Of a DNA stretch of 64,000 bases, positions 6,031-40,299 are shown in pieces. The stretch is from Prorocentrum cordatum (taxonomy: Eukaryota), in assembly GCA_963575745.1 (NCBI GenBank), contig CAUYUJ010000255.1, positions 1 to 64,000 of the forward strand. Reading direction: 5' to 3'. The first letter of the stretch is position 1. Each line of letters begins with the position of its first letter. A model generated the notes under the pieces. It made no database searches and had not been told where the DNA came from. It saw nothing but the letters and a program-made list of their open reading frames with translations. A program made the translations under genes and the position numbers.

Positions 6031-7199
6031 CACCACCACCACCCGCTTGCCGGCAGTGAGAAAGCGTGTGGGAAATTTGGCTATCCCTCTCCCTCTTCCC
6101 CCCTCCCCTCGGGACCCGAATCTCGCCTAAGTGGGGCGGGGGGGGCTGAAGGGGAGGAGGGGATACAAACTCGCCAGCGCACAGCTGTGGCACTCGGAGC
6201 CTCTAAATCCACCCTCCGTGGCCGTCGGGACGCCCAATCTACACCTTTCGAGACGGCTCCAGACAAGGGCTCCAACCGGCCAGAGAGGTCGCAAGAACAC
6301 CCAAGATGGCCTCAAGACGGCCCAGTACACCCCAAAAAGGGCTCCAAGCGGGACCCCAGATGTTACAATTATGGATGTTCAAGAAATGATTTGCGTGATT
6401 GCGTGCTTGCGACCCAGCGTTTGAATGATTTTCGCGCGTAAGAAATCCGCCGGCCCTGTCGGCGTGTGTGAGGGGGAGCTTTGGGTCCGTCATCCCCGGG
6501 AGTCCCTAAGACACGATCTTTCATTCGCTTTGCTCTTCCATTCCTGGAGACTCTCCCAAGACCCTCCGTCACGCGCCAAGCTCGTCAACTCGAGGCGGAT
6601 CGAGCCAGGTCGCAGTCGGAGTCGTGCGTGGGTCGACGGGAGACCCGGTCCATTTGATCCCTTCCCCATCTGGGGGCGGGGTCACGGGGGGGCTCCCCGG
6701 GGGTTTCCAGGAGTTTGGTCCCAGGGTGGGGTACACCCTGCGAAATGCTTAAGAAATCATGGGTTAAGAAATTCATAGTCTCAGAACTTGAATAAAAACC
6801 TAAAGTTTCCATTCAAATCTCAGGATTTACATTGAAACATTAAGAATAATCGAGACTCTGGCCGAAAATTTAAGTTTTCTTAAGCATCGCCTAAGGTGTA
6901 GAGGGTCAGAATACACTGTAGGCCAGTCCACAAGAAACCTGCCACAAGAAGCACAGCCCTGGGACCCCGGGACGTCCATTGGTTGTTGGTGTGGGAGCGT
7001 AACGCCTTCCATCGCAAAACCATCGAAACCCACGAAACCCAGGGCACCCTGGAGGCAACCAGGATGTTTCTTGGCATGGGTCTCCACTGTACTGTCCCGC
7101 CCTTCCCTTTTCGGACAACCTTCGAGCAAATGTGACCCGCCTTCGGCAAACCAGATCGAGGATACTTCAAGAGGGATCCAAGAGGGCCCAGAATCACGA

Positions 7200-7730
7200 A
7201 GCTATTGCTCCAAGACGAACAACATGGCTTCTAGGCGACCCAAGACGCCTCCAAGACACGCCTAGAGGGCTCCGAGAGCACTCCCAAGAAGGCCCCCCTT
7301 GGCGACAGTGATTGTATTCCCCCGGGTCTTTTAACGATGTTCACGTTTCTGCCTGTTCGGCTTCCCGACGCTCCCAAATGGCCCAAAAAGGCCGCAAAGA
7401 TCTACCTACGACGGCCTGCGAGGCCGTCAAGAGGGCGCCGAGACGGCCCAAAAGGCCGCCAAGGCATCCCAAGGGGCCTCCAAGACGGCCCCAAGAACGC
7501 CCCAAGAGGGGAACCAGAGGGCGAAAAACACGAACCGACAACGTCGAGCCCACCGCCCTGAGAGACCCCCAGGAGGCTTCCAAGAGGCTCCCAAGAGGCC
7601 CCAAGAGGCCCCCCAAGAGACCCCAGGGAGTCCCACGACGCTCCCAAGAGGCTCCGGAGAGGCTCCCTATCGGCCCCCGACTGCCTCCAGACGCCCCCGA
7701 TAGCCCTCCGAAGAGATCCCCAAAAGCATG
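7200..7730. repeat. CCCAAGA-rich dispersed repeat family; other copies ~38290-38945, ~60600-61110, ~62890-63150, inverted ~5420-5690
   Basis: Arrays of ggcc(c/t)ccaaga(g/c) with shared anchor cggc(t/c)(t/c)(c/t)ccgacgc at ~7358, ~38508, ~60737. Confidence 0.75.
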
Positions 7731-9617
7731 ACAGAGGATTCTGACCCACTACCCTGGCACGGTGGCGGAATGGGCTTTAGGCCGCCAGGTAATCCAAGAG
7801 GGGCCTGAAATCGTCCAAGCTCCCGAAGAGAGCCCCCAGAGGGCCACACACACACAGAATTCCAAGCACCCCCCCAAACAATACCAGGAAACTTTGGTTT
7901 GACACGGTTGCGGGCTGTTTCGGGAACCCTCACGGGCCCTCGGGGCCCCTCTTTGAGACTCTTGGGACTTCCATTTAGCCCAGCGAGAGCTCGAAGTAGG
8001 CTCCAAGAGAACCCGGAGAGAGCTCCAAGATGGTCGCCAGAAGGTTGCCCACAGTATCATACTAAGGCACATTAGTGGGATGGCCGTGGGCCACGAGATA
8101 ATCCAAGAGGGGTCTGGAATCGCCCGAACGCCCCAAGAGCCCCCAGAGGGCCTCCAGATGATTCTCCACGAGACGACCGGGCTCGCCTTCTAGATGGTGG
8201 AGATGGCGCTGCATTGATGCCGACATGGTCCAAGATTCCCTCAACGACGGCGGCGATGACCTGGTCTGACCTAAGATGGCCCCAAAATGACTCCAAGACT
8301 GTTCCAGATGGCAACAAAAGGCTGCCATGAAGCCTGAGGAGGCTACGAGAGCCCCGAAACAGGCTCACAGGAGGTCTCCTCCTCCTCCTCCTCCTTGTTG
8401 TCCGCCTCCTCCTTTCCTCCTTCTCCTCCTCCTGCTTTTCCCCGTCCTCCTCCTCCTCCGCCGCAGCCTCCTCCTCCCCCTTCTGATTCCACCCCGCTTC
8501 CTCCCCCAGCGGCTGCGAGAGCACATGGGCAGATAGCTTGGTCAACCTGTGCCCCTCGTCATACGCTTCTTGGGAGCCACCTGGGGCTTCAAGGGCTCTC
8601 TTCGGGGCGTATGGCCCCAACCTCCCCGAACACATCCGGCTGTCACCTTCATCATGAGGGTCGGTAGCGATAAACCTTCCGCTGTCATTCTTTTTACGAC
8701 TCAACGGGTCTGGGAAGCAGGACCAGCCTCCCTCAGGAGCCCCTCAGCACCGTCCAAACGGTCCCCACCCCCACTCGGCCACGCATCTCAGCCCCACCCC
8801 GCCCCCCAGTTGGGGATAGGCCCCTCCAGGGTCGGCGGCACCAGCCGTAAGACCTTCACAGTACACATGGGTGTATTTAGCGCCGGGGGCCCCGACGACG
8901 TTGGAGGCCGTGGGGCCACCGAGCGGAGTCCTCCGCTTCCGCTCCTCGGCGCCTGGGTCCGGGCAGGCGCCAGCGTCCCTTGCGCGCGCGGTGGGGAGGG
9001 GGCGCCGGCGGCACCAGAGGGAGGAGGGCGTGAGAGGAGGAGGAGGAGGAGGAGGAGGAGGAGGAGGAGGAGGAGGAGGAGGAGAAGGAGGAGGAGGAGG
9101 AGGAGGAGGAGGAATGTGGAGAGCAGAAGGCAGAAAGGGAGGATGCGACGGATGCGGAGAAGAAGGAAAAGGATGAGAGGAGGAGGAGGAGGAGGAGGAG
9201 GAAGAAGGAGGCAGCGGATGAGGAGGAGGAAGAGGAGGAGGAGGAATGTGGAAAGCAGAAGACAGAGAGGGAGGATGCGAAGGATGCGGCGATGAAGGAG
9301 GATGAGGAGGAGGACGACGAGAAGGAGAAGGAGAAGACCTGATCACCACGCATCATGTGAGCGGCTGATGCAGCACGGCCCAGGAAAGCCCCGCCGGCGC
9401 GAGCGTATGTCGCGCCGCAGGTTGGGAAATGCGCTGGGGATACACCATGTCACCATCCCCCCCCCCCCCTCCCCCCGTCGCCGTGCTGAAGCGCCGCGCA
9501 CGGGCGCGGCGCGTCCTACCAAGCGGGGGAGGGGGGGCAGCGGCGGCGCACTTTATGCGCTCTTGATCCGCTCCCCTACGAACTAGCCACCAGCCCAGCC
9601 AGCTCCCCCCCCGCTAC

Positions 9618-21943: not shown

Positions 21944-22733
21944 CCATAGCACGGCCAATGGGAGTGGCCCAGGCTGGACCGAGGAGGCGAGGATGCAAGG
22001 GTACCCTTGGGAACGCTGCCCGTCCTCACTATGCGGGCTGACTGCACGCTGGCCGAGGCGAGCGTGGAGGCGACCGAGGCTGCCGCCGCGCGGAGCAGGG
22101 CGACAGCGGCGCCCGCCGCCGCTGGAGCGCGGCGCCCGGCTCCCGCGGGAGAGGCCGCCGCCCGCGCCACCCCCCCGGCGAGGGAGGCGCTGCCGCCGCC
22201 GCCGCGGCAGCGCGGCGCCCGACCGCCGCGGCGCCTCCGCCTCTCCGGGCAGGGGCCCTGGGACAGGCGCAAACAAACACAGGCACAAAGCACAGGAATG
22301 CCCCAATGAGTCTCCTGTGCCGTCTGGGCTCTCGCCCTCCCCGCCGCGTCCCACATCTCTTCCCATATTTTTCCCCGGGGGTCGACGAGGAATTCTACCT
22401 GCGTGCTCTTTCCCCTCCTGATCCCCCGCCGTCGCCGGGCGAGGGAGGCGCTGCGGCCGCCGCTGCTAAAGCGCGCGGCGCCTGGCCCCCCGCGCCGCCG
22501 CCGCCGCCCCCGCCGCCGCCAGGCGGAGCGGGGCGGCTGCGGACGAGGGGGGCCACGGTCCCCCCCGGGGAGGGAAGCGGGCTTCGATGAACAGGAGCAG
22601 CAGCAGCAGCAGCGAGGCACGAGGACCGCGCCCGCGGCCGCGGCGGCGCGGCGAACAGAACGTGGACTCCGCGGGGCCTGACGCCCCCCCCCCGGAGTGG
22701 GAGAGAGAGGGGAGGAGGAGGAAGCGGAGGAGG

Positions 22734-22877
22734 AGGAGGGGAATGCAGGGCCGCTCTCATTATTTGTCAACGCTCCATCTTGTGCTGCCGACGTTGCGTC
22801 ATTGAGCGCGCAGACGAGGAGGCACGAGAGCCCCGAAAGAAAAACAGTGAGCGAACAGTAGTAGAACATTCAGACAA
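22734..22877 (-). repeat. Terminal repeat B2 (144 bp) of the DIRS element
   Basis: Identical to 23002-23145. Confidence 0.95.
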
Positions 22878-22919
22878 GCCGCGGGCTTGACGAGCCTCAG
22901 GCATTGGGCTGGCACAGGG

Positions 22920-23007
22920 AGGCGAGAAAGAGGCTTGAACCGCATTGGTTGCGGATCGGACGCCGCGGACCAGCGCCCCTCCTTCACGTGCACGCACCCC
23001 CAGGAGG
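22920..23007 (-). repeat. Internal repeat A2 (88 bp) of the DIRS element
   Basis: Identical to 29557-29644; overlaps B1 by the 6-mer aggagg (23002-23007). Confidence 0.95.
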
Positions 23008-23145
23008 GGAATGCAGGGCCGCTCTCATTATTTGTCAACGCTCCATCTTGTGCTGCCGACGTTGCGTCATTGAGCGCGCAGACGAGGAGGCACGAGAGCC
23101 CCGAAAGAAAAACAGTGAGCGAACAGTAGTAGAACATTCAGACAA
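23002..23145 (-). repeat. Internal repeat B1 (144 bp) of the DIRS element
   Basis: Identical to 22734-22877 (aggaggggaatgcagggccgctctc...gaacattcagacaa). Confidence 0.95.
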
Positions 23146-23179
23146 CCCAAACCTCCCGAACCGAAGGTAAGTGTAGTTA

Positions 23180-26100
23180 TCAAATCATATATTCACTGCG
23201 AGCTTTCGAGACCAAAACGGAAGCTAAAGTGTGAGCCAGGCGCGCAGGGTAAGGCATCGCGATGACGGTCCAGCGAACCCCCCCTGGGCCAGCTCCCTCG
23301 AGGTGCTGATGGGGGCGCCCTGTGCGGCTGCAAATCCCGCGGCCAGGACAGATCCGACTTAGTTTCGTCAGGTCTTCCGCGGGGACGTTTCCCACCAAAA
23401 AACGAGTTCTCTTTCTCCAGGGCTTTCCCCAGAGACAGTAGTCAGTGACAATAGAGACGGCGCGGCTACGCGCTACGAAAACTTTCAGTTTGTGATCATG
23501 CCACATCTTTGATGTGTGAGGGTTCTCAAGAACCCAGGGGACCCCGGCAGACTGGGCGGACCTGGCCAGATCAAGAGCTGCGTCCAGCGTGGCGTTACCG
23601 AGAGCGACCTTGGCCAGGTCGCGGGCGTCGAGGCCCGGGATCCCCCTAATAAACTTACGAGAGCGAATTGGGTACGTCCGATCCCGAGCAGCAGACCACG
23701 AGCTGCAGGGCGGAGCCAGCATCATTCCGATACATCGGCCGCGAGCGAGATCCTGTTTGATCGGCCTGCGGACTCTCGAATCACACAGGTCACCTGAAGG
23801 CCCGTGGAGCAGGTCCCACTCCCGAGCACAGAAACCAGCCACACGAACTTTCTTGCTAACTATCCCGCAGCCTGAAAAACACTCGGCAATATAAGTCTTA
23901 TCTACACATGCTGGCGACCGAAGGCTAGAGGCTCTCGTCTTCCGAGGAACGCATCCGCGAGCAGTGACTCGCAGCGCGTGCAGTGGCTGCGCGTCAGAGC
24001 GTCGAGCTTCCCGAACTCGAGCCCCACTCGCGCGTGCTTCTCGTACCGAGCCACGGACTTCAGCTTGCGCCAGCGGCCCCGCTTCATCACTTCTGGCAGC
24101 CCGCGAAGGTCGCGAAGCCGGTCGTGCGAGGCCCCGCTGTGCCGGAGTTGGTAGGGCACTAGCTTCAGCCCAAGGGTCGCGCCAGCGGCCCTCGCGTCGG
24201 CCAGCAGGTCCTGGTAGGTGAACGGGAAAGCCCGCTCCGCCGCTGGCCTTGAGTTGATCTCCCTCCAGACCACGTCGAGCCACTTGAGCGACTTCATGTC
24301 GAGCTGGAGGCTGTCGTCGAGCACCCCCACCTTGGTAGGCTGGCCCAACTCCTCCGGAGCCAGCAGCAGGCACCAGTACTTGGACACCCCGTCCAGGGGG
24401 CCTATGAAATGGCCGCACCTGATGTTCAGCATCTCGGACGGCCTCAGGTAACACATGAAGCAAAGCAGGATCGCCGCCGCCTCGTAGCGCTTGCCACGCG
24501 CCAGAAGCCAGTGGCAGACTGCCGCCCAGACGCAGAAGGGCATCGGGTGGCGGCTCCGGCCAGGGCACAGGCGGCGCCAGCCCTTCACTGCTCTCCACGA
24601 TCGTGGGAGCGAAAGCTGGCCAATCTTCCCAAACTCCGGGAGGACGTGAAGGACACCAGCCAGCAATTTCTCCCCCACATTGGCCTGCTTGCCAGTAAGG
24701 AACAGCTCCGTCATGTGGATACACAACGTCCCATCCAGCTGGGACGGCGGGTGAAGGCCAAGGCGCCGCTGCTTCGCCCAGTAGTAGAGCCGGGAGACCA
24801 GGAGGTGGTAGTAGTCCCTGGTCTTGGTCTGCACGGCGTAGGACTCCAGCAGCGTCCCCATCTGGTCCATGGCCTGCCGAGCGGAGAGGAGGTACTTGGC
24901 GCGTCTGCGTTTGCACCGACCCCTCATGGCTTCGTCCAGGTCGTCGCTGTCTGAGCTGTCCTGCACGCCCGCCGCCTCGTCGTGGTCCAGGCCGGTGTCG
25001 GCCTCCTCGAGCCCGACGCTGATCAGGGGCCCGGCGAAGGCCTCCTTCTCTGACAGCCCCTCGAGCTTCGGCGCCTGCACCCGGTCCAGCAGCACTGGTA
25101 TTGCCACGCCCAGCGTCCGCCTCTTGCTCTTGACTCCCGCCGGCGGCTTCACCACGGACGAGAGCTGGGGCCGGCGAAGCCGCGTCGGGCACGAAGGCGC
25201 CGGCGCGGACAGGCGGGCTTGCCGCTTGGGGGCTGCAGGCCGCCGGGCGGTCGCTGGTCGGCGGCCGAGGCGTGCTTCCATCGGCATCTCTCGATGGGTC
25301 GTCGGCTGGATTGAATTCTGATTTGATCCAGCGGAAATACGGACGAATGTTATGGATAAGACACAGGGCGCGGAAGCGCCGAATTTGCCGTAGTACAACG
25401 TAGTTTTTACATCTTCCCCGAGCGAACGAGAGCGTGATAGCCATGTTGTCGATCAGGAATAGGTTTCGACTGTTTCGAACTCCTTCGGCGATCAGACTCT
25501 CCAGACCCAGAACTAGTGCCCGAGCTTCTAACTCCAGAATGCGTTCTCCAAAATTCCACTTACCCTTTCCAGTAACTCTCCAGGGTGATATCAAATCGGA
25601 CTCGGCGATGCAGCCCCGGGCAGAGAAGAGACCCCCTTCCCCGAACGGCACCTCCGGAAACAGGCTGTCAATCATCCAGACCTCCTCCCCCGTCGACAAC
25701 GGCAAGGCCTCCCCGATGTCGATGATGGTGGTGGTGGTGTCGGTGAACGATAGCGGATGGTGATTGTCATTGTCCTCGTCTAACGGATACAGTGCTGCGC
25801 TCGCTGCCTCGCGAGCTCCAAGGCTGTGCACACGACGAAATCGGGACACCTCTGAAGTGCGAGCGATGCTAGCCACTGCTTTGGCCGTCAACGAGCAACG
25901 GCAGTGCCCCCATCCCTCGAGGGAGGCATCTGTGGCTACTATCGTCTCACACCAAGGTAGATCCCACGGCGCCCGCACCAGAGGCAGGAGCCCAATGAAG
26001 GCCTGGAGCTCCTGCCGCACGGTCGGCCACACCACCGCCGCGGCGTCGCCGTACCGGTGGATGAAGGCGTAGCAGGCGTTGAACACGCTTAGGGCCGTTC

Positions 26101-27535
26101 GGTCCAGCAGGCTGACGAACGTGGCGTGCCCGACGAGCCGCTCCAGCTGCTTGCCGCTGAGGCGTCGCCGCCGAAGGGCCCAACGAAAAGCGCCATCGAT
26201 GCGCCACCTCCGTTTCTCGGTCACCTGCGTCTCGAGCCGGTGGCCGTCCAGCACGCACCCCAGCGTCTCGCCGCCATTGCCCTTCAGGTCGTGCTCGTGC
26301 GTCTTCAGGCCGACGGCGTCCAGGGCTGCGCAGCCCTTGTTGAGCGCCAGACCCACAGGCCGCTCGGCGCTGCCGACTACGTCCAGGTTGTCCACATACA
26401 GGGCGTACCTCACGTCTGCCCCCTTTCCCAGCACGATGGGGGCGGTGTAGTCGGAGGCCCTTCTCTCGGGCCCCAGCTGGTGCACCTTGTTGAGGACTGC
26501 CTCGCTGCACTTCTGAGCGACCCACAGCGACCACGTAAATCCCATGGGGAACGATGCCAAGCAGGGATACACCGGCGCCTCTCGCGCCAAGCTGTCCCGC
26601 AAAGGCGTATGCTTCGCCGCGATCGGATGGAGGGCGAAACACCGGTGCATGCCGTCGGGGAGCCGCAACCGGTGGAAGCAGTTCTCGACGTCGCCGATGC
26701 CCAACGTGAAGATGCAGTCGGGGTCCTCCTTGTAGTCCGCCTCGCACTCGATCCTGGACAGCCCCTCGCTTGTGATCAGCTCGGTGTGCGGAGGAGCTTT
26801 GAACCGGCGGTTCCCCCTCCTCGCGTCAATGATGAGTCTCAGGGACTTGTCCTTCTTTCCAACAAAAAACATACCTGCGTGCTCGATGGGCTCAGTGGTC
26901 CACTGGATCAGGCCCCGGCGCTCGAGGTCCAAAATGAACAGCCGGTAGGTCTTCTGGTTCCGCGACAGCTTCTTGTCCCAGAACGGTTTGATATCACCCA
27001 GCCTCTCGTTGAGCTTGTTAAACTCATCGGTAGACCGCATCATGCTCTTCTGCCAACCCTCGATGATCAGGCGGTCCTCAGCGTCCAGCACCTCCGTCAC
27101 GACTGCTGCATCGTGGACGTGCTCGGGGAGCGAGACGGAACCAAACTCGTAGGGCACGACGGTAGTGTAGGTCTCCTCGGCATCGTAGCTGAGATGACCT
27201 CGGAGAAGCACGCGAGCGGCTTCTTCCTGGGAAGGCGCTGTCACCGGCTTCGCGATCACAGGGGCGACGAGAGTCGCCACGGCCTCCTCATCAAATTCAT
27301 TGGCGCCTGGCGGCCCTGAAGTCCGCGCACCCAGGCACCAGTGGAGCGCATCCACGGTCTCGTTCTTGCGCCTGAACTCCTCCACGCCCAGTCCATGACG
27401 ACGTCTGGACCGACGCGAGGGAGCACCAACCCGCGACGGGATGTCGTAGGAGGGCAGGCGGCGATGCACTCCCATGCAGGACCTGGTAAAGGCGACGGGG
27501 GCTGGCCCACTTCCCCCGCCGCTCGCCTCCATCAT
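23180..27535 (-). CDS. DIRS pol: reverse transcriptase + RNase H, in frame with a C-terminal C5 cytosine DNA methyltransferase (1451 aa ORF)
   Basis: RT motifs: MFFVGKKDKSLRLIIDAR, IGDVENCFHRL, FPMGFTWS, YVDN (26387-26398). RNase H motifs: TDASLEGWG, ELEARAL, IDN, WIKSEFNPADDPSR. DNMT motifs: I (ECFSGCG), IV (APPC), VI (LENP), VIII (RKRTRF) in ~23180-23900. Confidence 0.9.
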   Translation of the reverse strand: MMEASGGGSGPAPVAFTRSCMGVHRRLPSYDIPSRVGAPSRRSRRRHGLGVEEFRRKNETVDALHWCLGARTSGPPGANEFDEEAVATLVAPVIAKPVTAPSQEEAARVLLRGHLSYDAEETYTTVVPYEFGSVSLPEHVHDAAVVTEVLDAEDRLIIEGWQKSMMRSTDEFNKLNERLGDIKPFWDKKLSRNQKTYRLFILDLERRGLIQWTTEPIEHAGMFFVGKKDKSLRLIIDARRGNRRFKAPPHTELITSEGLSRIECEADYKEDPDCIFTLGIGDVENCFHRLRLPDGMHRCFALHPIAAKHTPLRDSLAREAPVYPCLASFPMGFTWSLWVAQKCSEAVLNKVHQLGPERRASDYTAPIVLGKGADVRYALYVDNLDVVGSAERPVGLALNKGCAALDAVGLKTHEHDLKGNGGETLGCVLDGHRLETQVTEKRRWRIDGAFRWALRRRRLSGKQLERLVGHATFVSLLDRTALSVFNACYAFIHRYGDAAAVVWPTVRQELQAFIGLLPLVRAPWDLPWCETIVATDASLEGWGHCRCSLTAKAVASIARTSEVSRFRRVHSLGAREAASAALYPLDEDNDNHHPLSFTDTTTTIIDIGEALPLSTGEEVWMIDSLFPEVPFGEGGLFSARGCIAESDLISPWRVTGKGKWNFGERILELEARALVLGLESLIAEGVRNSRNLFLIDNMAITLSFARGRCKNYVVLRQIRRFRALCLIHNIRPYFRWIKSEFNPADDPSRDADGSTPRPPTSDRPAACSPQAASPPVRAGAFVPDAASPAPALVRGEAAGGSQEQEADAGRGNTSAAGPGAGAEARGAVREGGLRRAPDQRRARGGRHRPGPRRGGGRAGQLRQRRPGRSHEGSVQTQTRQVPPLRSAGHGPDGDAAGVLRRADQDQGLLPPPGLPALLLGEAAAPWPSPAVPAGWDVVYPHDGAVPYWQAGQCGGEIAGWCPSRPPGVWEDWPAFAPTIVESSEGLAPPVPWPEPPPDALLRLGGSLPLASGAWQALRGGGDPALLHVLPEAVRDAEHQVRPFHRPPGRGVQVLVPAAGSGGVGPAYQGGGARRQPPARHEVAQVARRGLEGDQLKASGGAGFPVHLPGPAGRREGRWRDPWAEASALPTPAQRGLARPASRPSRAARSDEAGPLAQAEVRGSVREARASGARVREARRSDAQPLHALRVTARGCVPRKTRASSLRSPACVDKTYIAECFSGCGIVSKKVRVAGFCAREWDLLHGPSGDLCDSRVRRPIKQDLARGRCIGMMLAPPCSSWSAARDRTYPIRSRKFIRGIPGLDARDLAKVALGNATLDAALDLARSAQSAGVPWVLENPHTSKMWHDHKLKVFVARSRAVSIVTDYCLWGKPWRKRTRFLVGNVPAEDLTKLSRICPGRGICSRTGRPHQHLEGAGPGGVRWTVIAMPYPARLAHTLASVLVSKARSEYMI
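23902..25287 (-). CDS. Tyrosine recombinase (integrase) of the DIRS element, ~461 aa from first ATG
   Basis: YR catalytic signature: YLRPSE (R), TKVG (K), YQLRHSGASHD (x-x-R box), KRGRW, SVARYEK (Y nucleophile). ATG at 25287 follows the RNase H end. Confidence 0.92.
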   Translation of the reverse strand: MPMEARLGRRPATARRPAAPKRQARLSAPAPSCPTRLRRPQLSSVVKPPAGVKSKRRTLGVAIPVLLDRVQAPKLEGLSEKEAFAGPLISVGLEEADTGLDHDEAAGVQDSSDSDDLDEAMRGRCKRRRAKYLLSARQAMDQMGTLLESYAVQTKTRDYYHLLVSRLYYWAKQRRLGLHPPSQLDGTLCIHMTELFLTGKQANVGEKLLAGVLHVLPEFGKIGQLSLPRSWRAVKGWRRLCPGRSRHPMPFCVWAAVCHWLLARGKRYEAAAILLCFMCYLRPSEMLNIRCGHFIGPLDGVSKYWCLLLAPEELGQPTKVGVLDDSLQLDMKSLKWLDVVWREINSRPAAERAFPFTYQDLLADARAAGATLGLKLVPYQLRHSGASHDRLRDLRGLPEVMKRGRWRKLKSVARYEKHARVGLEFGKLDALTRSHCTRCESLLADAFLGRREPLAFGRQHV

Positions 27536-29127
27536 GATGCTGGCGGGGGCGCTGGGAGCCCGGGCTTGCCTTTCTTGGTCTTGCCTCCTGCCCCTCGGCC
27601 CCCGCCGCCTTTGTTACCACCTGCGCCCGGCGCCGCGCCGGCCGCGCCTGGGTCCTCCTCGTCGTAGCCCTCCGCCTGCGGCGCGTACAAGCCGCCGCGC
27701 TGCACGCCGCCCTCCAGAGCCTTCTCCTTGAGCTTCCTCGCGCCGTAGACACGCAGGTCCGGAGCCACCGCGTCCTCCAGCATCGCGGTGCCTGAGTACA
27801 CGCCGGCCATGCTGTAGTTCGGCTTGGCGCCCGGCACCGAGTGGGCCTCCAGGAGTGTCTGGAAACGCCTCATCAGCACCTCGATCCCTGCTAGGCAGGG
27901 CATGTTCAGCTGGTCGTAGCAGCCGAACTGCTCGAAGCTCTCGGCCAACACTCGCAGCTCGTGGTAGGCGCGGTCCGAGGGCGCGACGTGCTTTCTCCTC
28001 CCCCATGCCTCCAGCCAACTGGTCGGCATCGGCCCGAAGCGGTCGATGTGCTTCATCACGCTGAGGGCGGTGCTCGGGCCGTCGAGCGGCCAGTCGCGGA
28101 AGGAGTGCGAGCTTGACTCCCTACATACCTCCTTCCAGTCCTTGTGCCGCTCCCCCTGCGAGTCCCAGTCGACCTCCAGCACGCGGACGTCCACCGCGAC
28201 CTCGCCAGCGGCCGCCGGTGCTGCTGCGCCGGGCGGCCGCTCCCCGAGCACGCGCTCGAGTAGGGGGCTGCCTTCTCCTGCGTCTTCGATCTCGCGGCCA
28301 CCTGCCTCCCGCCTGAAAGCGCCGACAGGGTCGTCGTCGAGCGCGATGGTGGGCGGCTCCGGCGCGCCGCGCGGCGTTGGCGGCGAGAACTGCACCAGCC
28401 GCTGAGTCTTGAAGTCCTCCTCCGAGACTTCCGGGCTCACGGCCATCACCGGCGCCTCGAGCCCTGTGTCCGAGATGGCCACGCCGAAAAGCCGCCCGCC
28501 GAAGACTAACAGCCTCGGCTCCACCTCGCTGCCGATGTTGCCGAAGGCCAGGCCGGGCTCGGAGACCCGCCAGGTCACTGCGGGAGGCTGGTCGTCGCCC
28601 TCGAGCCTATCGAGAGCACCTGCGAAAACATCACCTCGTCGATCGCCTCGGGGCCCGGAGCGGGCACGCGCCGCCGCGGTCAGCGGCAAGGATGGCCCAG
28701 GCACAGGCAGCGCTCCGCGCCTTGGGAGGCGCCGCCGTCTGGGCATCGGCTCCAGCGTTCCGTCGGTGGAGACCCACTGCGTCGGTGCCGGCCAGTCTGG
28801 CAGCCCGAGCGCGCCTCGAAGGGCGCCCGCATGCAACTGGGCCGCGGCCAGCAGGTCGAGGCACTCCTGTCGCTGGACTGGCCGGTCGAACTGCACGATG
28901 TCGACCGACTCCAGCCTGGGCGGGCGATCCCCGAAGCCCTTGAGGGCCACCACCTTCTCATACAGGGAGGTGTCTTCCACGTAGAAGTGCCCCTGGGCGG
29001 TGTAGATCATCCACACCGAAGTCGAGAGCGGCCACACCAGCACGCGCTCATGTCCCCAGGCGTCACCCTCGAAGAACACCACGAACGTGTGCCCGGGCAA
29101 GGGCGTAGTGGGCACGACGACCGCCAT
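27532..29127 (-). CDS. Gag-like ORF of the DIRS element (~531 aa from ATG)
   Basis: Long non-repetitive ORF directly upstream of pol; its TGA overlaps the pol ATG (ATGA at 27535-27532). Gag identity is inferred from position only. Confidence 0.75.
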   Translation of the reverse strand: MAVVVPTTPLPGHTFVVFFEGDAWGHERVLVWPLSTSVWMIYTAQGHFYVEDTSLYEKVVALKGFGDRPPRLESVDIVQFDRPVQRQECLDLLAAAQLHAGALRGALGLPDWPAPTQWVSTDGTLEPMPRRRRLPRRGALPVPGPSLPLTAAARARSGPRGDRRGDVFAGALDRLEGDDQPPAVTWRVSEPGLAFGNIGSEVEPRLLVFGGRLFGVAISDTGLEAPVMAVSPEVSEEDFKTQRLVQFSPPTPRGAPEPPTIALDDDPVGAFRREAGGREIEDAGEGSPLLERVLGERPPGAAAPAAAGEVAVDVRVLEVDWDSQGERHKDWKEVCRESSSHSFRDWPLDGPSTALSVMKHIDRFGPMPTSWLEAWGRRKHVAPSDRAYHELRVLAESFEQFGCYDQLNMPCLAGIEVLMRRFQTLLEAHSVPGAKPNYSMAGVYSGTAMLEDAVAPDLRVYGARKLKEKALEGGVQRGGLYAPQAEGYDEEDPGAAGAAPGAGGNKGGGGRGAGGKTKKGKPGLPAPPPAS

Positions 29128-29542
29128 ATTCCCACGGTTGGGGTCGACACCCGCACGCCGCGAGGAGTCCACCGATGAAGCTGGTCGTCGCCCCGACGAT
29201 GGTCTTCACGAAGTTGAAAACCGGCAACTCCTCGCACTCCGATTCCGAGACGTGCTCGATCACCGGCTCGCACGCCTGCACCCAGGCTGGCCCAGCGTCT
29301 TCTTCGCACCTCCAGGGTGCCGGGCAAGGGGTACACGAACACTCCACCACCGAGACGTTCACGCCAAGGTCCTCCACCCCCACGCGGCCGACGTCCTGCC
29401 GCGCAGCCGTCGCCGAGTGAAGCGCGAACTCGCCCAGCCGCAGCGCGCTTTCCAGCGCGATCCCAGGCCGGTCCGCCACGAGCCGCCACAATCCAGCCAG
29501 ATATGGGGCGGCGAGGAAAGCGAGGGCGCAGGGGCGGGGCAT
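29063..29542 (-). CDS. Small accessory ORF0 of the DIRS element (159 aa, hydrophobic N-terminus, Cys cluster, putative TM segment)
   Basis: First ATG 15 nt after repeat A1; non-repetitive; overlaps the gag start by 65 nt; hydrophobic FVKTIVGATTSFIGGLLAACGC. Confidence 0.45.
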   Translation of the reverse strand: MPRPCALAFLAAPYLAGLWRLVADRPGIALESALRLGEFALHSATAARQDVGRVGVEDLGVNVSVVECSCTPCPAPWRCEEDAGPAWVQACEPVIEHVSESECEELPVFNFVKTIVGATTSFIGGLLAACGCRPQPWEYGGRRAHYALARAHVRGVLRG

Positions 29543-29556
29543 GAGCGCCCGACTTC

Positions 29557-29644
29557 AGGCGAGAAAGAGGCTTGAACCGCATTGGTTGCGGATCGGACGC
29601 CGCGGACCAGCGCCCCTCCTTCACGTGCACGCACCCCCAGGAGG
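29557..29644 (-). repeat. Terminal repeat A1 (88 bp) of the DIRS element
   Basis: Identical by eye to 22920-23007 (aggcgagaaagaggcttgaacc...cacccccaggagg). Confidence 0.95.
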
Positions 29645-30833
29645 AAGGAGGAGGAGGAGGAGGAAGGAGGAAGGAGGAGGAAAGTTCGAGGAGGCCTTCC
29701 GCCATTCTCGGCATATGGGCGACCCGGGCGAAAGACTGGCCAGCATGGACACCCGGAGGGGCGAACGGATTTGGCTCTGGACGGGGAGGAAGGGGGGGAA
29801 AGAATGAGGATGGGTCGTAGCCATCGTCGTTGTGGCAATCGACATCTGCCCGTCCGCGCGTCCGTCCGTCCTCGTCGTCGCTGCTTCCGTCCGAAAGAGG
29901 GGGGGAGAGGAGGGAGAGGAGGAGGAAGAGGAGGGAGGAGAAATAGAGGAGGTAGGGAGGAGAACGAGGATGGAGAGGAGAAAGAGGAGGTAGGGATGAG
30001 GAAGAGGATGGGGGGAGAGGCGGGAGAGGAGGAGAAAGAGGAGGGAGGAGAAAGAGGAGGCAAGCAGAGAGAGAGGATGGGGGGGAGCTGAGGGGGAGGA
30101 ACGGCAGCGAGAAGAGAGAGCAGGGCGCCGGCGTGCCGGAGGAGGAGGCAGAGGGGAGGACGGAGAAGGAGGCCACAGACGGGAGGAGGGGGAAGGTTGC
30201 TCCCGGGGATCAAGGCTGCTCCCTCCAAGGGATACAACTCACATCGAATCATGCCCCAGTCAGTGCTTGCACTGAAGGGGTCATAGCGGATGTTGAAAGA
30301 TTTGGCTAACGCTTCCCGCCTATTTTGGTGGCCAGCTGGGTTCCCGGGTTCCCGGTTCTGGATTCCCAGGTTCATGGTTATTGGTTCCGGTCCGATTTCG
30401 GTGGGTTCCGGGTTCTCGGGATCCCGGGTTCCTGGTCGATCTCCTTATCGATTTCTGCACCGACCTTGCAGACGTGCTGCAGTGGATTTTCCCCATGGAT
30501 TTCAGTCAATACAAAGCCCCGAAACGGCGAGTGAAAAACGAGGTGGATTGCGCGTGGAGTCTGTTTAGTCTCCATTCCTGGCCCAAACGAATCCGCACAA
30601 CATTCACCTCGAAATCTGGAACGAAATGCTCCAGGACACTCCGGGCCCATCCTGTCGTTTTCCAGTCGACATCCGCTCTGCGATGTTGGCGCCATGACAC
30701 GGCGGAGGGCCCCAGGCCCAACGGGCAGGGCGCTCCTCGGGTCCTCCGTCCCAGGCGCCTGCAGGCAGACCGCGCGCCGGCGAGGCTGGCTGAGCGGTCA
30801 GCAGCCTCTCTCGCTCCACCTCGCTGAGCGATC

Positions 30834-31555
30834 TCCTCCTCCTCCTCCTCCTCCTCCTCCTCCTCCTCCTCCTCCTCCTCCTCCCCTTCCTCCTCCTCCT
30901 CCTCCCTCCTCCCTCCTCCTCTTCCTCCTCCTCCTCCTCCTCCTCCTCCTCCCTCCTCCTCCTCCTCCTCCTCCTCCTCCTCCTCCTCCCTCCTCCTCCT
31001 CCTCCTCCTCCTCCTCCCTCCTCCTCCTCCTCCTCCTCCTCCTCCTCCCTCCTCCTCCTCCTCCTCCTCCTCCTCCTCCTCCCTCCTCCTCCTCCCCTCC
31101 TCCTCCTCCTCCTCCTCCCTCCTCCTCCCCTCCCCTCCTCCTCCCTCCTCCTCCGCCTCCTCCTCCTCCTCCTCCTCCTCCTCCTCCTCCTCCTCCCCCT
31201 CCCCTCCTCCTCCTCCTCCGCCCTTTCCTCCTCCTCCTCCTCCTCCCTCCTCTTCCTCCTCCTCCCTCCTCCTCCCCTCCTCCGCCTCCTCCTCCTCCTC
31301 CTCCCTCCTTCCCCCTCCTCCTCCTCCTCCCTCTCCTCCTCCTCCTCCTCCTCCTCCTCCTCCTCCTCCCCTCCTCCTCCTCCTCTGACCCTCCTCCTCT
31401 CCTCCTCCTCCTCCTCCTCCTCCTCCTCCTCCTCCTCCTCCTCCTCCTCCTCATCCTCCTCCTCCTCCTCCTCCTCCTCCTCCTCCTCCTCCTCCTCCTC
31501 CCTCATCCTCCTCCTCCTCCTCCTCCTCCTCCTCCTCCTCCTCCTCCTCCTCCTC
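30834..31555. repeat. (CCT)n microsatellite, ~720 bp; many similar CCT/GGA tracts, e.g. 142-470, 9033-9112, 21400-21522, 49764-49960, 56280-56765, 57170-57470
   Basis: Direct inspection. Confidence 0.95.
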
Positions 31556-40199: not shown

Positions 40200-40299
40200 N
40201 NNNNNNNNNNNNNNNNNNNNNNNNNNNNNNNNNNNNNNNNNNNNNNNNNNNNNNNNNNNNNNNNNNNNNNNNNNNNNNNNNNNNNNNNNNNNNNNNNNN
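40200..40299. other. Assembly gap (100 N)
   Basis: Run of n between two satellites. Confidence 0.99.

Follow-up and report, generated by a model that had tools for sequence, protein, structure and literature searches.

A DIRS-order retrotransposon inserted in a GGA microsatellite of Prorocentrum cordatum shares a hexamer with its target that a three-base integration core could explain

The DNA analysed here, called the window throughout, is a stretch of 64,000 nucleotides (nt) from the dinoflagellate Prorocentrum cordatum (positions 1 to 64,000 of contig CAUYUJ010000255.1, assembly GCA_963575745.1), and it carries a 6.9 kb retrotransposon at 22734-29644 that lies within a GGA microsatellite and has the six bases AGGAGG in common with it. 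All of the element's genes are on the minus strand; positions below are plus-strand coordinates. On the plus strand the order is A1, a unique spacer of 39 nt, B1, A2, the coding region and B2, which in coding orientation becomes B2(88)-ORFs-A2(147)-B1(88)-39 nt-A1(147) (lengths in nt; ORF, open reading frame), and the direct repeats are 99–100% identical. Repeat A, 147 nt long, is found at 22734-22880 and 23002-23148 with 99% identity (144 nt at 100% by BLAST), and repeat B, 88 nt long, at 22920-23007 and 29557-29644 with 100% identity. These intervals include the hexamer; apart from it, A1, the 3′-terminal split direct repeat in coding orientation, occupies 22740-22880, the spacer, which has no second copy in the window, 22881-22919, B1, the internal copy of the 5′-terminal repeat, 22920-23001, the internal copy A2 23008-23148, and B2, the 5′-terminal repeat in coding orientation, 29557-29638. 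Its identical repeats and open frames indicate that the element is young, and it is an intact, recently inserted DIRS-order retrotransposon of the split-direct-repeat type.

Inside the element, the overlap of repeats B1 and A2 is exactly AGGAGG (23002-23007) and mirrors the predicted circle junction, and the same hexamer forms the first 6 nt of A1 at the left end of the element (22734-22739; the 3′ end in coding orientation) and closes B2 at its right end (29639-29644). The base that precedes the hexamer is G at 22733 and C at 23001, and the base that follows it is A at 29645 and G at 23008; since the flanking bases differ between the hexamer copies, the identity extends over 6 nt only. The B1/A2 junction is equal to the B2 end joined to the A1 start through a single shared AGGAGG, and a crossover anywhere within AGGAGG regenerates both ends exactly. 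The left flank (22699-22733) is a GGA-type purine tract, part of the target microsatellite, which continues in the right flank (29645-29683), and at each end all 10 of the adjacent bases are covered by repeats called by Tandem Repeats Finder (TRF). When the element is excised with one hexamer a continuous GGA tract remains, ...GAAGCGGAGGAGG[AGGAGG]AAGGAGGAGG..., and there is no target-site duplication. A first-pass annotation of this DNA had reported the hexamer shared at the junction, its presence at both ends, the GGA repeats in both flanks and the restoration of the tract on removal of the element, and all four observations are confirmed. Outside the hexamer, no similarity was found between the arms of the junction and those of the target. 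Inverted repeats detected in the window belong to the GGA/TCC tracts of the flanks and do not mark the ends of the element; the terminal repeats are direct.

The coding region begins with an ORF of 159 codons (29063-29542, minus strand, as are all genes below) and continues with an ORF of 546 codons in the position of gag (27532-29172), both without a family match, and the TGA of the latter overlaps the ATG of the Pol ORF in the sequence ATGA (27532-27535). Pol, 1451 codons long (23180-27535), contains a putative, divergent reverse transcriptase (RT) region at about 26300-26857, with a YVDN motif that is kept in 10 long relatives, an RNase H-like region at about 25277-26176 and, at its C-terminus, after a low-complexity linker, a cytosine-5 (C5) DNA methyltransferase domain of 240 residues at about 23183-23905. 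A tyrosine recombinase ORF, 459 codons from an ATG that aligns with the starts of its relatives (23902-25281), overlaps, in a different reading frame, the middle of Pol that is rich in Ala, Gly, Pro and Arg (23902-25398), the same arrangement as in DIRS1.

These family assignments rest on predicted folds and motifs, and the Pfam and PDB sequence searches gave sub-threshold matches only. Pol matched RVT_1 with E 0.16 (12.1 bits, cut-off 29.6) and the hepadnaviral RNase H model DNA_pol_viral_C with E 7.5e-4 (19.4 bits, cut-off 22.4), and the recombinase matched Phage_integrase below the cut-off with E 0.028; there was no Pfam match for the 159- and 546-codon ORFs or the methyltransferase part, and no match for the RT/RNase H region in the PDB sequence search. 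The low RT score agrees with the remark, in the available text of PMC5890265, that dinoflagellate DIRS RTs align poorly with Pfam. An AlphaFold model of the recombinase built on 25 relatives has a pLDDT of 74 (>90 for 242 residues) and is confident for residues 152-494; among the 27 structural matches with E ≤ 0.001 Cre is the best, with both domains aligned over about 340 columns (E 2.1e-5, probability 1.00), and the Xer, integron and lambda integrases stand lower in the list. R319, Y416-x-x-R419-H420, W443 and Y452 are conserved in the 25 sequences, and R319, R419-H420, W443 and Y452 are presumably catalytic. The predicted structure identifies the product of 23902-25281 as a Cre-fold tyrosine recombinase. 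In the methyltransferase part the motifs FSGxG, PPC, ENP and R-K-R are invariant in 11 sequences, and its model (pLDDT 66.6) best matches M.HaeIII (E 4.9e-4), followed by Dnmt2, EhMeth, DNMT1 and MET1, with TM-scores of only about 0.3; motifs and predicted fold together make the Pol C-terminus a predicted cytosine-5 DNA methyltransferase domain. The closest named proteins to the recombinase are from Prorocentrum cordatum, at 64% identity, and no protein of the same family was found in the protein database, where the best match was 86% identical and those to the methyltransferase part at most 44%.

How much weight the shared hexamer can bear depends on how common it is at the target. The window is 61.5% G+C, and AGGAGG occurs in it 399 times and CCTCCT 737 times, where base composition leads one to expect about 21 per strand. 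The 57,095 nt outside the element hold 392 AGGAGG and 725 CCTCCT, or 1,117 in all, and the 6,905 nt inside it have either hexamer at 19 sites only. Perfect GGA/TCC runs of at least 4 units number 38 on the plus strand and 85 on the minus strand, and tandem repeats detected by TRF make up 21% of the bases outside the element. The largest GGA/TCC block of the window is at around 30800-31550, and a scaffold gap of 100 N is present at 40200-40299. The first-pass annotation had held that GGA tracts saturate this genome, a statement that is correct for the window, to which these figures belong. From the same 57-kb stretch, which may differ from the genome at large, we calculated the chance that a single insertion would show the hexamer in register: it is 0.0097 at a random position, 0.10–0.14 given a core of 2 nt, and 0.30–0.33 given a 3-nt core of AGG, GGA or GAG. 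In sequence so saturated with GGA a 3-nt rule predicts the observed picture about one third of the time, and therefore one copy cannot separate a 6-nt from a 3-nt core.

One copy of the window family is the basis for everything said here about its targeting. No second copy or fragment was found in the window by searching for the A start and B end at ≤3 mismatches, by tblastn with three of the proteins or by blastn with the whole element; a 20-mer from the A start had 0 exact matches in genome_contigs, viral_contigs and metagenome_contigs, and a 21-mer from the B end had 0 in genome_contigs and viral_contigs. Eight of 10 sequencing runs share words with the window, one at 0.67 and marine metagenomes at 0.05–0.18, small shares that carry no evidential weight.

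More distant relatives were gathered with a profile of the recombinase, which gave 63 metagenome loci and one further contig, L001, all within a G+C range of 0.44–0.67, and 0 relatives in viral_contigs. The 63 loci belong to families other than that of the window element, and identity is mostly 26–42%. L001 is a contig of 3,736 nt from a bin labelled uncultured actinobacterium; it encodes a DIRS-type Pol and a recombinase with 40% identity to that of the window, has no termini, and most probably represents eukaryotic DNA that was assigned to a bacterial bin by mistake. Pairs of loci that seemed to be of the same family were rejected, being one locus assembled twice or lacking termini.

Both ends and the junction could be resolved in two relatives only, L028 (X1 at 2387, junction at 8890, end at 9138) and L024 (X1 at 331, junction at 6711, end at 7088), and in each of them element and target have 2 nt in common, CA and TG, respectively. 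An alignment of termini could be assembled from 15 rows: 10 show a target flank together with the start of an element, and 5 are internal junctions; both rows of the window are included. It displays a conserved 5′-terminal motif, T-GG[AG][AG]GTG..CAC, in 12 loci (L005-L059) and in the window at 29600-29644, with T, GTG and CAC invariant; the window B end fits this motif as T-GGGGGTGCGTGCAC. The reverse complement of B2, which was aligned with 14 termini of relatives, starts with GGGGGTGCGTGCACGTG, and the T that precedes it in the conserved motif is the first base of the adjoining AGGAGG part. In all 10 flanks and all 5 junctions, the three bases before the GG of the motif are pyrimidine, A/C and T (CAT, TAT, TCT and CCT), and CCT fills this slot in the window element. 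The slot looks like a degenerate trinucleotide common to target and junction, and the conserved motif, to judge by the alignment, may comprise a recombinase binding site plus a trinucleotide core. The internal junction of L046 (L046:1447-1513) reads ...GCATCAT followed by GGGGGTGCGTGCAC; it has a CAT dimer, and 14 of its 14 motif bases are identical to those of the window.

Some of these relatives also lie in repeats. L024 is within a 16-nt satellite on both sides (L024:1-332 and 7087-7315), and removal of the element with one TG restores the repeat unit exactly; L008 adjoins an array of an 11-mer (L008:1-122), L047 is inside (TACTAG)n on both sides (L047:5340-5575 and about 12190), and L056 is in (AT)n (L056:583-605 and 7014-7033). 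By eye, 4 of the 12 relatives with a visible 5′ end are in tandem repeats (the four just named) and the other 8 are not; TRF covers the 5′ flanks of 3 of the 12 (L008, L024 and L028), which corresponds to p = 0.007 when compared with 3.4% of all locus bases and to p = 0.14 when compared with a background of 11.1% outside the elements, a background that counts those same arrays. Such an excess of tandem repeats at the flanks is suggestive only, and since L024 enters its repeat with 2 shared bases, any repeat preference, if real, is not obviously driven by a long core.

A second copy of the 5′ repeat was sought in 10 of the loci and found in none. L047, L005, L022, L059, L056 and L016 are longer and have a recognisable 5′ end, yet no repetition of their first 120 nt lies downstream of the ORFs (the contigs of L008, L009, L019 and L029 are too short to judge), and these six may be A-coding-B forms that have lost the internal A copy, e.g., by recombination between two B copies. 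Contigs L043 and L053 each begin and end with an identical stretch of 77 nt, as would be expected if the assembler had collapsed the split repeats of an element present in many copies and so closed it into a cycle; neither contig carries flank information.

We consider that the insertion is best read, with a probability of about 0.55, as ordinary short-core DIRS integration in which the core is a GGA unit and GGA tracts are frequent landing sites without any six-base requirement. According to the published DIRS model, the RNA would be reverse transcribed and its ends rebuilt on the internal B1/A2 junction, and the Cre-like recombinase would recombine the resulting junction with a genomic site that has the same short core, an outcome that would leave no target duplication and one copy of the core at each end. 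The crossover would here have taken place somewhere within the shared AGGAGG; the obligatory core would most likely be short, about 3 nt (CCT beside the motif T-GGGGGTGCG on the coding strand, or AGG when read on the plus strand), and the remaining three shared bases would have come from an in-register landing in a GGA tract. GGA microsatellites would be a frequent landing place for the family because about one third of the AGG trinucleotides here lie in GGA tracts. For DIRS1-like elements the rule described in the available parts of PMC3266345 and PMC7192593 is that the circular junction, 3 bp long, recombines with a genomic sequence identical to it, and that the element begins and ends with the trinucleotide. 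The 2 nt that L028 and L024 share with their targets, and the regular slot in the aligned flanks and junctions, would fit a short core of this kind. The first-pass annotation had proposed a crossover, mediated by a tyrosine recombinase, between the circle core and any GGA tract; this agrees with the type of element, with the lack of a duplication and with the rebuilding of both ends by a crossover in AGGAGG. Its further proposals, of a required 6-bp core, possibly a sequence-specific integrase and a family that homes to GGA, find no support in a single copy whose hexamer a 3-nt core would match in 30–33% of cases, with two relatives that share 2 nt.

Several observations weigh against a core this short. 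A 3-nt core leaves the second GGA unit of the junction to coincidence, at about 1 in 64 for a given triplet, and the junction of L046, the structurally closest relative and the one with the most similar terminal motif, also carries a trinucleotide dimer, CATCAT, before the identical 14-nt motif. The 4 of 12 relatives in tandem repeats hint at a repeat preference that a 3-nt core does not predict, the invariant T may belong to the element as its first base and lie outside the core, and the figure of 3 nt does not come from the window family itself but is borrowed from other lineages of DIRS elements and a pattern that is degenerate.

A rival reading is that the recombinase needs identity over the whole 6-bp AGGAGG, so that two GGA units fixed at the circle junction confine integration to GGA tracts. 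Tyrosine recombinases typically have crossover regions of 6 bp, the shared segment of 6 nt amounts to exactly two units of the dominant microsatellite of the window, and composition does not explain the hexamer at the junction, as few copies of it occur within the element. CATCAT at the L046 junction points the same way, the relatives seen in tandem repeats keep this reading alive, and insertion of recombinase-linked elements into simple repeats or short motifs is known from endogenous nimaviruses in (TAACC)n (PMC10871703) and from the CAYCG target of Cryptons (PMC9977147). Nonetheless, we think true microsatellite homing unlikely: with one copy examined a 3-nt core gives an equal outcome at p about 0.3, the identity with the target is only 2 nt in L028 and, despite its position in a satellite, in L024, and the similarity of junction and target ends at the hexamer. 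A broader version would make the junction hexamer an adaptation, in which the circle junction of this dinoflagellate lineage contains a trinucleotide repeat unit twice over (CCTCCT in the window element, CATCAT in L046), the recombinase needs 6-bp identity, each family homes to the matching microsatellite and the target can be reprogrammed by a change in the junction; this we regard as doubtful, to the same degree.

Alternatively, the elements could prefer tandem repeats, such as polypurine GGA, AT-rich or satellite DNA, independently of core length, through DNA structure, chromatin or annealing of single-stranded cDNA ends, or could simply survive better there, and the 6-nt identity would then be a by-product. 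The four relatives seen in repeats and the TRF coverage at p = 0.007 fit this idea, as does the report that DIRS-1 cDNA is mostly linear and single-stranded (PMC7192593, available text). It is nevertheless rather improbable, as that coverage gives p = 0.14 against the 11.1% background, contigs that start in repeats may reflect assembly, 8 of the 12 5′ flanks are outside tandem repeats by eye and the window itself is 21% tandem repeat. Least credible is an insertion without any sequence requirement, whose register with a GGA tract would be an accident; such tracts are very dense in the window, but the chance per random position is only about 0.01, and the pyrimidine, A/C, T pattern in all ten flanks argues for a target constraint in the clade.

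The short-core and six-base models differ in what they predict for the flanks of other copies, of which about one third should be in GGA tracts with six shared bases under the former and nearly all under the latter. According to the available text of PMC7192593, no experiment has addressed how DIRS recombinases choose their targets, and a G-rich junction in a genome full of the matching repeat is a convenient natural test of how many bases a recombinase reads. Should three bases be enough, the element is one more family, new but ordinary, of a type already known from dinoflagellates. Should six be required, it would be a retrotransposon with a microsatellite safe harbour encoded in its junction, and our full-text literature search found no report of a DIRS-order element that targets a microsatellite. 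Recombinase-linked targeting of repeats in endogenous nimaviruses and short-core targeting in Cryptons are already known from the two sources cited above, as far as their available text describes them.

Among known systems the Chlamys Penelope-like elements (as described in PMC9977147) are also a retrotransposon family with a microsatellite target, (C)n, but they use a GIY-YIG endonuclease and target-primed reverse transcription and have no recombinase. The endogenous nimaviruses resemble the present case in that a recombinase family is linked to insertion in a simple repeat, (TAACC/GGTTA)n, with specificity for telomere repeats; unlike it, they are giant DNA viruses, and their recombinases are not closely related to those of DIRS elements (PMC10871703). 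In Cryptons a tyrosine recombinase likewise joins a short terminus to a near-identical 5-nt target (CryptonF-1_cRei, terminal CACCG and target CAYCG), but these are DNA transposons without RT and the target is not a microsatellite (PMC9977147).

Within the retrotransposons, the window element has the traits of the DIRS order: a tyrosine recombinase by predicted fold, insertion without duplication of the target site and an internal junction that prefigures the termini. DIRS1-like elements (Piednoel et al. 2011, PMC3266345; Malicki et al. 2020, PMC7192593), in the parts of these reports available to us, share with it a recombinase ORF that overlaps a Pol with RT, RNase H and methyltransferase (each of the three predicted in the window element), an internal sequence that prefigures the circle junction, the lack of a target duplication and an identical short sequence at both ends. 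Their inverted terminal repeats with internal complementary regions (PMC3266345) are in contrast to the split, direct repeats found here; their junctions are mostly NTT trinucleotides (23 of 28; PMC3266345, Table 3), whereas that of the window element is 6 nt and G-rich, and its methyltransferase, unlike theirs, is of the cytosine-5 type. The split-direct-repeat layout of PAT-like elements, Ngaro and SymbioDIRS, A1-coding-B1-A2-B2, is the one found in the window. PAT-like and Ngaro elements (PAT, kangaroo, TOC and the Cafeteria Ngaros of PMC8547959) have these repeats, A1-[ORFs]-B1A2B2, together with a tyrosine recombinase, but Ngaro elements are without a methyltransferase, and the site preference described in the available text for the Cafeteria Ngaros is for virophage versus host DNA and is tentatively ascribed to Gag, not to a core.

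The closest counterpart is SymbioDIRS-Dnmt3 of Symbiodiniaceae (PMC5890265). A-coding-B-A-B is the arrangement of split-direct-repeat DIRS-order retrotransposons (PMC8969392; PMC5890265), and SymbioDIRS-Dnmt3 has it, as well as a Pol that combines RT and RNase H with a C5 DNA methyltransferase, a separate ORF for the tyrosine recombinase and an RT too divergent for Pfam, as the putative RT of the window element is also. The C5 methyltransferase domain inside the Pol ORF is recognised in the window by its motifs and predicted fold. The available text of PMC5890265 makes no mention of junction cores or microsatellite targets; the two also differ in that the host sequence here is 61.5% G+C and the methyltransferase relatives found are ≤44% identical. 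Layout, motifs and predicted folds together make the window element a probable new family of the SymbioDIRS-Dnmt3 type described by de Mendoza et al. (2018).

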